In this document: piece after piece, positions 15,960 through 42,476 of the stretch
How the letters are laid out: the number at the start of each line of letters is the position of its first letter
How positions within the stretch are numbered: position 1 is the first letter of the stretch
Origin: Escherichia coli
Lineage (GTDB): Bacteria; Pseudomonadota; Gammaproteobacteria; Enterobacterales; Enterobacteriaceae
Assembly (NCBI RefSeq): GCF_044324785.1
Contig: NZ_CP172127.1
Length of the DNA: 64,000 nucleotides
Reading direction: 5' to 3' (one strand)
Notes under the pieces: generated by a model
Database searches by the model: none
Seen by the model: only the letters and a program-made list of their open reading frames with translations
What the model was told of the DNA's origin: nothing
Translations under genes and position numbers: made by a program

Positions 15960-15976
15960 TTACCTTAGAGGTAATA
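15960..15976. promoter_or_regulatory. operator-like palindrome TTACCTTAGAGGTAATA
   Basis: Perfect arms; part of a composite module with TATGTGGTT at 16008-16016. Confidence 0.55.
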
Positions 15977-16021
15977 AAATATTCTAAAATCTATTGATTT
16001 CGTGTCTTATGTGGTTTTTAA

Positions 16022-16036
16022 TTACCTAAGGGGTAA
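16022..16036. promoter_or_regulatory. operator-like palindrome TTACCTAAGGGGTAA, 4 bp before the ATG at 16040
   Basis: Overlaps the ribosome-binding region of the next gene. Confidence 0.5.
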
Positions 16037-16039
16037 ATC

Positions 16040-16387
16040 ATGAGAAAACAGATGCAGGCTCTTGGTCGACTCAAAACAGGCCAGATGAACAAAACAGAAT
16101 CTGCGTATTGCCAGCACCTTGAGCTGCGTAAACGTGCAGGAGAAATCGTCTGGTATCGATTTGAGGGTATCAAGCTGCGGTTAGCTGACAACACGTTCTA
16201 TACGCCAGATTTTGCTGTGATGCTCGCCACCGGCGAGATGGAACTGCACGAAGTGAAAGGGGGATTCTGGACCGATGACGCCAGAGTGAAAACCAAAGTC
16301 GCCGCAGATCAGTATCCGTTCCGAATCATCGGGGTAACGGTTAAGCCAAAGAAAGCAGGTGGTGGCTGGAACATCGAAGAGTTCTGA
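16040..16387 (+). CDS. small PD-(D/E)XK-like nuclease (Hjc/DUF1064-like), hypothetical
   Basis: 115 aa; TPDF...E.HEVKG spacing resembles a D...E.K nuclease core. Confidence 0.4.
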   Translation: MRKQMQALGRLKTGQMNKTESAYCQHLELRKRAGEIVWYRFEGIKLRLADNTFYTPDFAVMLATGEMELHEVKGGFWTDDARVKTKVAADQYPFRIIGVTVKPKKAGGGWNIEEF

Positions 16388-16448
16388 ATCGACGATCTTT
16401 TTAGTTATCAATGTAATCAATAAGTTATGTGGATAAGCGAGGGTAAAG

Positions 16449-17000
16449 ATGGAAAGTAATATCAAAGGGTTAGTTGCCGCCGGGCATGAGATGGCTTCGG
16501 AACTGAAAGCAGAATGTGGTGCCGTTGATATGCGCAGTGTGGCAAAGCTGATCAGCGATTTGGCAACGCAACTGGAAGTGCAACTGGTGCGTGCTAATGC
16601 GCTGGCCGAAGACCAGCAGAAAGCGATTGAGTCAATTAAGCAGGCTGATTCGGCTGTTAAGTTGGCACACGAGAAGTTTTCGGAGCTGGCAGCGGAGAAT
16701 GCGAGACTGAAATCTGCGCACCCTCAACCATTCGGACCTGAGATGATGAAGGCTATTGATGCGTATGAGAAGTATCAGGATGAAGTGCCGGAGACTGGGA
16801 TGCTCAATGCATTTTTCATCTTGCGCGACAGTATCCGTGTTGACACCCCAGCCACCGAAGCATTCCTGGCTGAAGTACGGGCGCAGGGCGTGGAGATGGC
16901 TATGGAGCATATGCAGTCGAGCGGTTCGTTAACATTTGGAGATTGCTACATATCACTTAACGAGTTCGCCGCAGAGCTTCGCAAAGGAGGTAACCAGTGA
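16449..17000 (+). CDS. hypothetical protein
   Basis: 183 aa ORF in the rightward early operon. Confidence 0.45.
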   Translation: MESNIKGLVAAGHEMASELKAECGAVDMRSVAKLISDLATQLEVQLVRANALAEDQQKAIESIKQADSAVKLAHEKFSELAAENARLKSAHPQPFGPEMMKAIDAYEKYQDEVPETGMLNAFFILRDSIRVDTPATEAFLAEVRAQGVEMAMEHMQSSGSLTFGDCYISLNEFAAELRKGGNQ

Positions 17001-17296
17001 GTGTATATCTCATTGATAAACGCCGGCGTGGGCAACAAATACCATCTGTTGAAATGCCGAATCACACATGGTTTTGCGTACTTGATATCGATGGTATGGA
17101 TGCGTTGGTTAACACTCGTCATTACTGCGATACCGCAACAGCTACTCCGGCGAAAGCAAAGAAAATGGCTGCTCTGATAGAAAACTGGACTCCACCTGAT
17201 GGTTGGTGCAATGGGAATGATCGAGATTGGCACGAAAAAATGAAGGGCTATATCTGCGATTTTTTACGTAAATGCAACGGCTTCAGGGTGATGTGA
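16997..17296 (+). CDS. hypothetical protein
   Basis: 99 aa; 4-bp overlap with the upstream gene. Confidence 0.4.
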   Translation: MSVYLIDKRRRGQQIPSVEMPNHTWFCVLDIDGMDALVNTRHYCDTATATPAKAKKMAALIENWTPPDGWCNGNDRDWHEKMKGYICDFLRKCNGFRVM

Positions 17297-17297
17297 T

Positions 17298-17984
17298 ATG
17301 ACCAAAATTAACTATCAGGCACTGCGTGAGGCGGCAGAACGTGCAATTCCGGCAATGGAACGCCTGTTAATGTTGCCAGTTGATGATGATCTGATAAGCG
17401 AACAGGAACTTAAAGATTACGGTGTGGATATTGATGCGCTCAACGCCTTCAAATTTCTGGCCGGACCAGAAACCGTGCTGGCACTGCTGGATGAACGGGA
17501 AAGAAACCAGCAATACATAAAACGCCGCGACCAGGAGAACGAGGATATTGCGCTAACGGTAGGGAGGCTTCGCGTTGAGCTGGAAGGCAAAGACAGCAAA
17601 ATAGCCAATCTTACCGCCGAACGCGATGCTCTTCGTGAAGGTGAGATGGGCGACGCTAGGCATAGCAACACACGGGCCGCAGCTGATATCTACTTCCAAC
17701 TGGTCGAGGAGTGCGAAATTCCTGCTGGCGGATCTCTGGTCGAGTACGTTGACGATATGCGCGAGAAGCTGGAAGCCGCAGAGAAGCGCATTGCAGAGTT
17801 AGAAAGTGGTTCTCAGGCACAAAAGTTAGTTGAAGCAATCATTGTTGCGATAGAAAACGAACAGGAAAGGCTTTTTGATGAAGATTACCTAATGGATTCG
17901 AAAGAATGCATTGACGTAATTCGTGAAGAAGTAAAGCGATGGAATGATTCCCGTGCCGCTGGCATTCGCATCAAAGGAGAGTGA
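17298..17984 (+). CDS. Ead/Ea22-like coiled-coil protein
   Basis: 228 aa; acidic coiled-coil composition as in lambdoid ea22-type proteins. Confidence 0.5.
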   Translation: MTKINYQALREAAERAIPAMERLLMLPVDDDLISEQELKDYGVDIDALNAFKFLAGPETVLALLDERERNQQYIKRRDQENEDIALTVGRLRVELEGKDSKIANLTAERDALREGEMGDARHSNTRAAADIYFQLVEECEIPAGGSLVEYVDDMREKLEAAEKRIAELESGSQAQKLVEAIIVAIENEQERLFDEDYLMDSKECIDVIREEVKRWNDSRAAGIRIKGE

Positions 17985-17985
17985 G

Positions 17986-41006: not shown

Positions 41007-41270
41007 TGTGCCACCGCCCGTCAGAAGAACCCTGCTTTGTCGTTGATGTACTCCGCGTGCGTCTGGATATCACGCAGGCATTTGCTCACACCGACGATGT
41101 AGCAGAACATGGTGGTCAGCTCCGCCGCCGCGCCCGATACGTCGTGCCCGTCTTCCTGTAACTGGTTCAGCAGATTCATCAGCAGTGAGTTCTCCGTCAG
41201 GCCGAGAACACCAGACGGCGAATGAATCAGGCTGCGGTAGCCGGGCTTCAGCGGGGCGCTGTAGGTTTTG
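41007..41270. repeat. ~265-bp direct repeat, copy 2
   Basis: About 97% identical to 8101-8365. Confidence 0.85.
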
Positions 41271-41713
41271 TTCTCTATCTTCATCGCCTGCATTACTGCT
41301 GACGCCGTGGCGTTGGCTACCTGGTCGGCAACCATCTTTATGCGTTCTTCCTGCGGGAGCGAGTTTTTAATGTAACTTCCGGTGCGACGGATCTGAGGAA
41401 GAACCTCACCTGTAACCCATTCAAGAAATCTGAATGCTCTCGTTCCCTCTGTCATTGCCTCTTTGCAACGCAGAATAAGGATGTAGAGACCTGATTCTGA
41501 AACGATGGATAGTTCTTGTATTCCACCAGGGGTCTGTATTGAATACAGCCCCTTTTTGTTCCAGCCTTTTTTATCAAGTTTTCTCGCTTGTGTAACATCA
41601 ATATTCAAAGCATTGCACACATCTTTGGTGACAAACCAAGGTTCTCCGTCAATCATGAACATACGGATCTGGCAGGATGACTCAAAGGAAAAGATGGAAG
41701 GTTTGGTATTCAT
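41021..41713 (-). CDS. antirepressor with N-terminal BRO-N-like domain and shared C-terminal domain
   Basis: Start at MNTKPSIFSFESSCQIRMFMIDGEPWFVTKDVCNALNI... (AAGGTGA RBS); C-terminus near-identical to the 8115-8765 protein. Confidence 0.7.
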   Translation of the reverse strand: MNTKPSIFSFESSCQIRMFMIDGEPWFVTKDVCNALNIDVTQARKLDKKGWNKKGLYSIQTPGGIQELSIVSESGLYILILRCKEAMTEGTRAFRFLEWVTGEVLPQIRRTGSYIKNSLPQEERIKMVADQVANATASAVMQAMKIENKTYSAPLKPGYRSLIHSPSGVLGLTENSLLMNLLNQLQEDGHDVSGAAAELTTMFCYIVGVSKCLRDIQTHAEYINDKAGFF

Positions 41714-41964
41714 GGCGATCACCTTTGTAGTTAGGTTAATCACCACCGCTGAGACCAATCAGATGGTGGTGAACTGTGCAGAGTTGGTCTTACCGGCTAC
41801 AAAGGAACCCGGCGCACCTTTCGGTGCCCCCACACAGCCCACCATAGAATAGGTGCGCTTTACACATAAAAAAACCGCTTATGCGGCATATGTGCCTCTG
41901 TAGTAATCCGGGAGACCAATCCCGGCACTGGATTTTGCCAGTGCCTGATTACTATGGCACAAGA

Positions 41965-42005
41965 GGAGTGCTTATATTTACCGCAAAGGTAAATATAAGC
42001 ACTCC
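41965..42005. repeat. 41-bp perfect palindrome (18-bp arms, 5-bp spacer) GGAGTGCTTATATTTACC-GCAAA-GGTAAATATAAGCACTCC
   Basis: Exact inverted repeat; the TTACC-N5-GGTAA operator-like core (41978-41992) sits at its centre. Confidence 0.9.
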
Positions 42006-42023
42006 AGTTGGTAATTACAAACC

Positions 42024-42299
42024 TTATCTGGTTTGTTTTCGTAATTGTTCGGCACAATAGTCTAGATGTGTTTGCAGATCCTGCATAGACATCTGTGAGC
42101 TGGTGACGTAGTTAATCAGTGCAGTCAGTTCGGCAAGTGGGCCATCGACATTAAATCCATCCTTATCGAGATCCCGGAGTAATTTCATCAAGTGCGATCC
42201 CTCCACCAGTGACCTGACGCCTCCCGGCGTGTGAATCCTTTCGGTAAATCCGTCTTCCAGTGGATAGTGATACTGCTGCATCTTATCTTCTCCATGCAA
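42024..42299 (-). CDS. small protein homologous to the antirepressor C-terminal domain; candidate SOS-controlled antirepressor
   Basis: 91 aa; YHYPLEDGFTERIHTPGGVRSLVEGSHLMKLL...AELTALINYV...LQTHLDY parallels YSAPLKPGYRSLIHSPSGVLGLTEHSLLMNLL...AELTTMFCYI...IQTHAEY of the two Ant proteins; a LexA box lies immediately upstream. Confidence 0.55.
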   Translation of the reverse strand: MHGEDKMQQYHYPLEDGFTERIHTPGGVRSLVEGSHLMKLLRDLDKDGFNVDGPLAELTALINYVTSSQMSMQDLQTHLDYCAEQLRKQTR

Positions 42300-42300
42300 T

Positions 42301-42320
42301 AACTGTATAAATATACAGTA
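42301..42320. promoter_or_regulatory. LexA box (SOS operator) AACTGTATAAATATACAGTA
   Basis: CTGT-N8-ACAG with an AT-rich spacer, 18 of 20 to the consensus TACTGTATATATATACAGTA as I recall it; 2 bp upstream of the 42299 start codon. Confidence 0.65.
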
Positions 42321-42357
42321 TCAAATAATTTGTTTGCTATCCAGCACGTTTTGCAAA

Positions 42358-42374
42358 TCACCTGAAAGGTAATA
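42358..42374. promoter_or_regulatory. operator-like site TCACCTGAAAGGTAATA upstream of the tailspike gene
   Basis: One mismatch in the left arm; part of a composite module with CATATGTGGTT (42402-42412), GGTAATA (42418-42424) and a TAGAAT -10 candidate (42423-42428). Confidence 0.5.
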
Positions 42375-42476
42375 TCTTTTCGTATTTATGGATTATCTAT
42401 CCATATGTGGTTTTTCAGGTAATAGAATAACCAGATATGCGGCGCAACGGGTGCTGCGACTATCTGGAGATTTAAC

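Follow-up and report, generated by a model that had tools for sequence, protein, structure and literature searches.

The window analyzed here, a stretch of 64,000 nucleotides of the Escherichia coli contig NZ_CP172127.1 (assembly GCF_044324785.1), carries what its sequence identifies as a prophage of the epsilon15/phiV10 type (genus Uetakevirus), extending from an integrase gene (6831-8081) to the lysis genes near 47 kb. We assign it to this group because positions 15000-24000 share 95-98% identity with the Escherichia phages phiV10, TL-2011b, ZX5 and their relatives, and because the gene order is that of phiV10 and epsilon15. The subject of this work is a promoter module of this prophage, in which operators of the phage repressor Rep are combined with a second, dyad-symmetric element. 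The rep gene (12989-13573, minus strand) neighbours the operator regions OL and OR and encodes 194 amino acids, which match repressor families of PHROGs over both halves; residues 1-190 align with Rep of phage SPC32H (PDB 5D50, E 4e-42), and the phiV10 annotation assigns two helix-turn-helix (HTH) motifs to the orthologue. SPC32H Rep is reported to bind palindromic DNA as a tetramer in which N-terminal domains from different dimers are paired (PMC9638917). Beyond OR follows the gene of a Cro-like HTH protein of 76 amino acids (13728-13958, plus strand), which is weakly similar to the N-terminal HTH of Rep.

The initial annotation had described the module at three operon starts, those of the gene at 16040, the portal operon and the tailspike gene, as a TTACC-N5-GGTAATA palindrome followed by AT-rich DNA, a 9-mer and a second GGTAA(TA) element. 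The 9-mer, TATGTGGTT, indeed occurs at 16008-16016, 23489-23497 and 42404-42412, always on the plus strand and downstream of a palindrome, and the modules do sit at operon starts. The palindrome is exact at the 16040 gene (TTACCTTAGAGGTAA at 15960) and the portal operon (TTACCCGAAAGGTAA at 23431), whereas the tailspike copy (TCACCTGAAAGGTAA at 42358) carries one mismatch. The spacing from GGTAA to the 9-mer had to be corrected to 33, 43 and 31 nt, respectively. The second element, reported as lying 6-16 bp downstream of the 9-mer, follows it by exactly 5 nt in all three cases; it reads GGTAATA at the portal and tailspike modules, while the supposedly isolated GGTAA of the 16040 gene is in fact the TTACC arm of a second full operator (16022-16036). 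Four further copies of the element (12875-12888, 14034-14047, 42020-42033 and 45390-45403) and most of the operators had been overlooked.

The TTACC-N5-GGTAA palindrome is present in nine exact copies in the window, compared to 0.03 expected; allowing one mismatch, there are 18 copies versus 1.0 expected, 13 of which lie within the prophage. The RefSeq record of epsilon15 lists "protein_bind: repressor, lysogeny" features at equivalent places, namely OL, after the replication genes, before terS, and at the portal operon and the tailspike gene, and the identical palindrome is found in its sequence. Since this annotation falls on the same places and the window encodes a homologous, cognate Rep, the palindromes are, as the initial annotation had suggested, repressor sites: by this comparison they correspond to the already known Rep operators, and nothing in this half of the module is new. 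Two operators flank the leftward early promoter PL, one centred at about 0 (TTACCGTTGAGGTAA, 12855-12869) and one at -62 (12917-12931). The OR region between rep and the cro-like gene (13629-13691) contains an exact operator (13629-13643) and one with a mismatch (13677-13691). Past the cro terminator, an operator with one mismatch (GTACCTCAAAGGTAA, 14014-14028) is centred at -60 of the next promoter. The promoter of the 16040 gene repeats the PL arrangement, with operators centred at -62 (15960-15974) and at about 0, the latter (16022-16036) immediately 5' of the ribosome-binding site (RBS) and ATG. An adjacent pair ahead of terS (20286-20318) again consists of an exact copy (20286-20300) and one with a single mismatch (20304-20318). 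Upstream of the portal operon, the operator (23431-23445) is centred about -80 from the best -10 hexamer. In the antirepressor region, one operator (40934-40948) lies directly 5' of the RBS of a small minus-strand gene and another (41978-41992) overlaps the -10 of the leftward promoter of a Bro-like gene; the last (42358-42372), with TCACC in place of TTACC, precedes the tailspike gene.

Taken alone, the 9-mer is a weak and only marginally significant signal. Its three exact copies, which are the only ones in the window, compare to an expectation of 0.40, and 2 of 100 shuffles reach three; the judgement that it is weak follows from the count with one mismatch, which is not enriched (14 copies versus 12.6 expected). 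The signal becomes strong through the count of palindromes, the conservation at the same places in related phages and a fixed 5-bp phasing. Comparison of the copies identifies the 9-mer as the right arm and centre of a 14-bp dyad with the deduced consensus AACCATATATGGTT. Seven such dyads are present in the window, at PL, after cro, at the 16040 gene, the portal operon, the Bro-like gene, the tailspike gene and the lysis genes. All promoter positions given here are predictions from the best available -35 and -10 hexamers. The PL copy (ATGCGTATATGGTT, 12875-12888) lies in the promoter spacer 5 bp from the operator, is inverted relative to PL and is centred at -19.5. The copy after cro (AACCAAATATGGTT, 14034-14047) is a 14-bp inverted repeat one mismatch from the consensus, whose right arm overlaps the -35 (TTGATC) of the promoter of the replication genes (centre at -40.5). 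At the 16040 gene, the dyad (TGTCTTATGTGGTT, 16003-16016, plus strand), of which only the right arm is conserved, occupies the 17-bp spacer between the -35 TTGATT (15994-15999) and the -10 TTTAAT (16017-16022). The portal copy (AATCATATGTGGTT, 23484-23497, plus strand) is part of a 28-nt block that is invariant across six genomes and is followed after 5 bp by the Rep half-site GGTAAT (23503-23511, plus strand), which overlaps the best inferred -10 (TGgTAATAAT). On the minus strand, a half-site GGTAA (42010-42014) and 5 bp are followed by the dyad AACCTTATCTGGTT (42020-42033), which abuts the -35 TTGTAA of the leftward Bro-like promoter and is centred at -41.5. The tailspike dyad (ATCCATATGTGGTT, 42399-42412, plus strand) is centred -29.5 from the -10 TAGAAT; a half-site GGTAAT and this -10-like hexamer follow at 42418-42428 (plus strand), within a stretch, GGTAATAGAAT, that is invariant across six genomes. 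The lysis module (45380-45409, plus strand) consists of a half-site GGTAA (45380-45384), 5 bp, a diverged dyad (ATCCTTAAATGGTT, 45390-45403) and a -10-like TATTAT (45404-45409).

The dyad is enriched in all seven Uetakevirus-type sequences when up to three mismatches to the consensus are allowed: nine hits in the window compared to 2.8 in shuffled sequences, and 4-9 hits versus 0.7-2.2 in the six phage genomes. A weight matrix built from lineage variants, with the PL copy outside the training set, finds six sites in the window that score 18 bits or more (at 16006, 42402, 14044 on the minus strand, 23487, 12878 and 45393), the next scoring 14.2 bits. All six are intergenic and lie beside operators, and the untrained PL copy reaches 18.3 bits. 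Perfect AACCATATATGGTT palindromes are found at the lysis promoters of Enterobacter phage Tyrion and of phiV10. Dyads with a single mismatch occur at PL and after cro in Tyrion, and after cro in the window, phiV10, epsilon15 and SPC32H; phiV10 and Tyrion also share the seventh copy of the window, AACCTTATCTGGTT at 42020. The element is not similarly dense in coding sequence: in phiV10, six of seven copies are entirely non-coding, although only 6.5% of the genome is.

Alignment with related phages of Escherichia, Salmonella, Klebsiella and Enterobacter places the dyad at the same promoters, between diverging flanks; this includes SPC32H and, for three of the promoters, BUCT711. The corresponding promoters of epsilon15 and Klebsiella phage Kp4865-1 have TATGTGGTT, TATAAGGTT, TATATGGTT, TTTGTGGTT or TTTATGGTT, and the 9-mer is therefore conserved only in part. 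The tailspike promoter has invariant operator arms, CATAT, GGTT and GGTAATAGAAT, and the two bases between CATAT and GGTT vary (GT, AA, AT or AC). These are positions 4-5 of the 9-mer, which does not support its proposed role as a recognition element for an alternative sigma factor. Six diverged genomes aligned at the portal promoter have the operator arms, GTCAA, CTACG and the block ATATGTGGTTAAATTGGTAATAATTTAA in common, with differing flanks; an initial locus search based on the portal gene returned only relatives with a 100% identical portal and is informative for micro-variation only. Viral contigs were also scanned without bias for 16040-type promoters, with the -35 region and the downstream operator as anchors and the intervening 24 nt left free; TAT(G/A)TGG(T/A)T recurs at a constant place within this free region. 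Two neighbouring features of these promoters were seen in the same alignments. The portal motif GTCAA-N4-CTACG (23463-23476), upstream of the dyad and invariant across the six genomes, takes the form GTCAATAG in epsilon15-type phages, which is exactly inverse to the CTATTGAC sequence around the PL -35; a leftward portal promoter using this inverted CTATTGAC-like motif was ruled out by its wrong spacing to any -10. The tailspike leader contains, between the -10-like TAGAAT and the RBS, a G+C-rich inverted repeat (gcggcgcaacgggtgctgc, 42440-42458) that is partly kept across genomes (GCGC...GGGCGC in the alignment).

The dyad is positioned with respect to the Rep half-sites. A linker of exactly 5 bp separates every strong dyad from GGTAA or TTACC, and 28 of 103 loose dyad candidates have a half-site at exactly this distance. 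In a test of geometry only, in which we collected the 14-mers beside exact operators, excluded loci fetched by the palindrome and called dyad-like those with up to three mismatches to the consensus, 17 distinct dyad-like flanks were obtained with a 5-bp linker, compared to 0, 0, 0, 0, 3 and 0 with linkers of 2, 3, 4, 6, 7 and 8 bp. Two arrangements can be distinguished. In the first, a full operator or half-site is followed by 5 bp and the dyad (PL, after cro, the 16040 gene, the Bro-like gene and lysis); in the second, the dyad is followed by 5 bp and GGTAAT (portal and tailspike), so that TGGTT-N5-GGTAA fills the footprint of an operator. The hybrid site at the portal, TGGTTaaattGGTAA, begins 62 bp past the upstream operator; the two operators at PL, and those at the 16040 gene, are the same distance apart. 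Both families of sites share a core, ACC-N5-GGT in the operator and ACC-N6-GGT in the dyad. This core and the phasing are compatible with additional contacts by Rep, or with a related HTH protein. In the lineage of the window, the tailspike half-site GGTAAT (within 42402-42439) is flanked symmetrically by CATATGTGGTT and the near-inverse AACCAGATATG, each 5 bp away; the downstream AACCAGATATG copy is not conserved in epsilon15 and Kp4865-1.

Relative to the promoters, the dyad shifts. PL and the 16040-gene promoter are isomorphic: the -35 (TTGACA or TTGATT) is followed by a 17-bp spacer in which the dyad is centred at -19.5, and the two operators are centred at -62 and 0. At the promoters after cro and of the Bro-like gene, it abuts or overlaps the -35 (centres at -40.5 and -41.5), and its centre lies at -27.5, -29.5 and -19.5 from the best -10-like hexamer of the portal, tailspike and lysis modules. 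A fixed distance between dyad and -10, as activator-type late promoters have, is thus not found (-19.5, -27.5, -29.5, -40.5 and -41.5), and all seven dyads fall within -48 to -13 of the best predicted promoter model, overlapping its core. A standard sigma-70 scan of the portal, tailspike and lysis modules of the window returned no passing promoter. The status of the -35 is mixed, with TTCATA-17-TAGAAT in epsilon15-type tailspike promoters and a good -35 at the 16040 gene and PL. The initial annotation had read the 9-mer as an alternative-sigma or -35-type element, which does not agree with an arm of a dyad that is centred at -19.5, at about -28 to -30 or at about -41 depending on the promoter and is inverted at PL; at the 16040 gene and PL it lies in the 17-bp spacer of promoters that have a good -35 of their own (TTGATT and TTGACA). 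Recognition by a sigma factor, or a role as a substitute -35, is unlikely for a dyad whose position shifts among promoters and which is inverted at PL; the dyad resembles the site of a separate DNA-binding protein across the promoter core.

Overall, the module is real as judged from its sequence features: it is a predicted Rep-controlled promoter cassette with two interleaved families of binding sites. From the sites, their phasing, their conservation and their positions we infer that a protein binds the dyad, and we lean towards regarding it as a second operator that is mostly repressive and coupled to Rep. Its binder would be a dimeric regulator of the phage that is co-inherited with the immunity region and that would modulate, and for the most part repress, all promoters outside OR, either jointly with Rep or in competition with it. 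A candidate for this regulator is the Cro-like HTH protein, the first product of PR; the alternative candidate would be Rep itself, with another arrangement of its DNA-binding domains. The distribution of the dyad among viruses bears on this choice. Among viral loci fetched by the perfect palindrome, for which most matches are single chance copies, 11 have at least two dyad-like sites. Six of these also have an exact Rep operator, which in one case (L329) is distant and possibly there by chance, and five do not; three of the 11 share an unrelated 586-bp spacing. The co-occurrence of dyad clusters with Rep operators points to a binder linked to immunity. The three loci with the 586-bp spacing (L294, L332 and L329) are unrelated viral contigs with two AACCATATATGGTT-like copies exactly 586 bp apart, apparently a different repeat family. 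Of host factors, IHF, CRP, Fis, DnaA, sigma-54, PhoP, CpxR and MerR-type regulators were compared informally, by eye, through their consensus sequences, and none fits the dyad.

Several observations weigh against a second, repressive operator. The left arm is weak or absent in the copies at 16003, 12875 and 45390, and the conserved bases at the late promoters, CATAT and GGTT, are asymmetric, so that part of the signal could be promoter sequence. In epsilon15-type tailspike promoters, TTCATA matches the -35 consensus at four of six positions and is 17 bp from TAGAAT. No dyad is present in the OR region (13629-13691), where classical action of Cro would be expected. The portal and lysis modules, which have no recognizable -35, fit an activator as well as a repressor. 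For Rep as the binder, a comparison of its N- and C-terminal domains detected no mutual similarity, which leaves the idea of a C-terminal domain reading a related site unsupported. Finally, the dyad is apparently undescribed so far: it is not annotated in the epsilon15, phiV10, SPC32H and Tyrion records, promoter mapping is absent from the reporter-phage and ZX5 papers, and the dyad was not found in the searchable literature, which does not include the primary epsilon15 and SPC32H papers, where it may be described.

That the dyad belongs to the Rep operator system is a tentative possibility, which overlaps with the second operator favoured above in that it names one possible binder. GGTT(W) would then act as a weak half-site, and the dyad (ACC-N6-GGT) together with the hybrid TGGTT-N5-GGTAA would provide extra contacts for the four domains of the Rep tetramer. 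The common ACC/GGT core and the strict 5-bp phasing to half-sites argue for it, as does the portal hybrid TGGTTaaattGGTAA at the 62-bp operator distance of PL and the 16040 gene. The sole full operator of the late promoters lies at -70 or -80, too distant to block the polymerase alone; multi-copy dyad clusters are mostly found alongside Rep operators (6 of 11 loci); and the Rep tetramer pairs N-terminal domains of different dimers (PMC9638917). Yet the half-site spacing of the dyad is one bp off that of the operator, and the flanks differ (AACCA versus TTACC). In addition, the arms of the hybrid site are direct and not inverted repeats, the corresponding distance at the tailspike is 50 bp and not 62, and the invariant CATAT is left unexplained.

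A bipartite lock at every promoter outside the immunity switch of epsilon15-type phages is an equally tentative proposal. The lock would consist of a canonical Rep operator or half-site and, exactly 5 bp away, the dyad. The latter would be read by the Rep tetramer, through a different surface or arrangement, or else by another protein of the immunity region that represses early promoters and activates the late ones lacking a -35.

Rather unlikely, in our view, is that the dyad serves as the site of a phage activator or sigma-like factor for middle and late promoters, with Rep operators silencing them in the lysogen. The portal and lysis modules have a -10-like hexamer and no -35 in the standard scan, and the portal and tailspike dyads, centred at -27.5 and -29.5, cover the location of a -35. 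Class II activator sites are centred at about -41, the position of the dyads after cro and at the Bro-like promoter (-40.5 and -41.5). Candidates for such an activator are encoded, contrary to the initial statement that none is recognizable. They include a PerC-family "transcriptional activator" (PF06069; 9978-10277, minus strand) in the PL operon and a gp49-like protein of about 112 amino acids (19858-20199, plus strand; phrog_536, "transcriptional regulator"), whose gene is the last ahead of a terminator and terS; an AlpA-like protein (10387-10635, minus strand) is a further candidate regulator. No member of the Ogr/Delta, Mor/C or MotA-like activator families was recognized among the prophage proteins. 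Against an activator, the dyad lies in the spacer (-19.5) of PL and the 16040-gene promoter, which have a good -35 and where binding would normally block RNA polymerase, and its better arm is inverted at PL. The distance to the -10 is inconstant, unlike that of a sigma or appropriation element, and the terminase operon, a late function, has operators (20286-20318) and no dyad. An activator role is nevertheless possible for the late promoters without a -35.

The gp49-like protein was considered as leading binder of the 9-mer and was ruled out in this role. Relatives of it are encoded by phage ZF40 (L083, 14594-14941; 66% identical) and by the lambda-like phage Chlobot (L085, 17206-17487; 89% identical), which has its own Q, and in these two phages we found no Rep operators and no intergenic dyad or 9-mer. 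The element therefore does not travel with the gp49-like protein, which also speaks against the activator. The protein may remain a lesser candidate, since its specificity may differ among phages. Its family, unnamed and widespread, has members in temperate phages of the podo-, sipho- and myovirus types from Enterobacteria, Vibrio and Aeromonas, gene 46 of N15 among them. A confident structure model (predicted local distance difference test, pLDDT, of 91.5) has a helical N-terminal part and a Cys-rich knuckle, in which Cys79 and Cys82 are invariant. The fold had no significant match among solved structures (best E 1.2 across 48 residues), and sequence searches of Pfam, NCBIfam and PDB gave nothing.

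It is improbable that the dyad is merely conserved core-promoter sequence for the host RNA polymerase (weak -35, spacer or upstream -10 context) with incidental palindromy, as TGGTT running directly into -10-like hexamers at several promoters (TATTAT, TATTGT, TTTAAT and TTAAAT), the plausible sigma-70 promoter TTCATA-17 bp-TAGAAT of epsilon15-type tailspike modules and the far stronger conservation of the right arm might suggest, because 14-bp palindromes that are perfect or have one mismatch occur in several genomes, the element takes three positions relative to -35 and -10 in both orientations, spacers are not normally conserved and yet TGG is constant in the 24-nt free region of the unbiased scan, and the phasing follows Rep half-sites and not the -10.

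Other features of the prophage were noted as well. The operator at 41978-41992 forms the centre of a perfect 41-bp palindrome (41965-42005; GGAGTGCTTATAT-TTACCGCAAAGGTAA-ATATAAGCACTCC) that is kept in phiV10 and could be an extended operator or a hairpin. A near-operator, TTACCTTAAAGGTAT (6774-6788), lies just 5' of the integrase gene (6831-8081) and is kept in epsilon15, SPC32H, Tyrion, Kp4865-1 and BUCT711; control by Rep may extend to expression of the integrase. At terS, the program-called open reading frame (TTG at 20240) probably starts too early, as comparison with epsilon15 places the true start at an ATG near 20323 (MPAEPK...). With this revised start, a terminator (20249-20266) and the operators at 20286 and 20304 lie immediately upstream and leave no room for a promoter, which suggests roadblock-type control of read-through. 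The gene at 42024-42299 (minus strand) is the orthologue of the SPC32H ant gene (phrog_450). Directly 5' of it, within 42300-42321, is a perfect LexA-box-like sequence, taaCTGTATAAATATACAGtat (CTGT-N8-ACAG, 42303-42318), and the antirepressor therefore appears to be under SOS control; the same intergenic region houses the tailspike module. Two more antirepressor-like genes, 8115-8765 and 41021-41758 (both minus strand), match the PHROGs antirepressor families phrog_377 and phrog_130, and the C-terminal parts of both match phrog_450, the family of the small Ant.

Phages of the epsilon15, phiV10 and SPC32H type serve as reporters and in typing of E. coli O157 and Salmonella, and structural studies of their repressor and antirepressor exist. 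If the dyad truly is a second operator, the published switch would be incomplete, in that two phased sites and not one would govern both the repression and the timing of PL and of the replication, virion and lysis genes. The dyad would then offer a handle on the missing lytic or late regulator and would be relevant to the engineering of reporter-phage promoters. A bipartite lock, if true, would mean that a phage group with a solved repressor structure has either a lytic regulator of dual function or a way of recognizing operators that is new. If the dyad were promoter context only, the finding would shrink to a re-description of known Rep operators.

The closest known system is the Rep-Ant-LexA switch of epsilon15 and SPC32H. 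The window shares with it the operator ATTACC-N5-GGTAAT at the genome positions annotated in epsilon15, a homologous Rep, and a small Ant-like gene with a LexA box ahead of it; it differs by the dyad AACCATATATGGTT, which has no counterpart among the annotated features of the epsilon15, phiV10, SPC32H and Tyrion records. In lambda-type antitermination, Q recognizes an element between the -35 and -10 of PR'. The dyad is similarly placed at PL and the 16040-gene promoter, and terminators separate the operons of the prophage. In contrast to the lambda system, it also occurs outside spacers, and, in line with the initial annotation, no Q-like antiterminator was recognizable in PHROGs, Pfam and NCBIfam scans of the genes in 16040-20199. 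The promoters controlled by P1 Lpa, P2/186 Ogr/B and T4 MotA are activator-dependent and have no -35. The portal and tailspike modules resemble them in their -10-like hexamer, the apparent lack of a good -35 and a conserved element near -28 to -30. Unlike in these systems, the dyad is also found in the spacers of complete sigma-70 promoters and upstream of a -35, its distance to the -10 is not fixed, and the prophage has no recognizable protein of the Ogr/Delta, Mor/C or MotA type. For the C1 operators of P1 and the "stoperators" of mycobacteriophages L5 and L1, the operators of a single repressor are scattered genome-wide. Multiple operators are described for L1 (PMC1934351). The operators of the window are similarly spread over early and late regions, where they stand before late genes and after terminators. 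They differ from stoperators in being symmetric and not asymmetric, and in being paired with a second, phased element.

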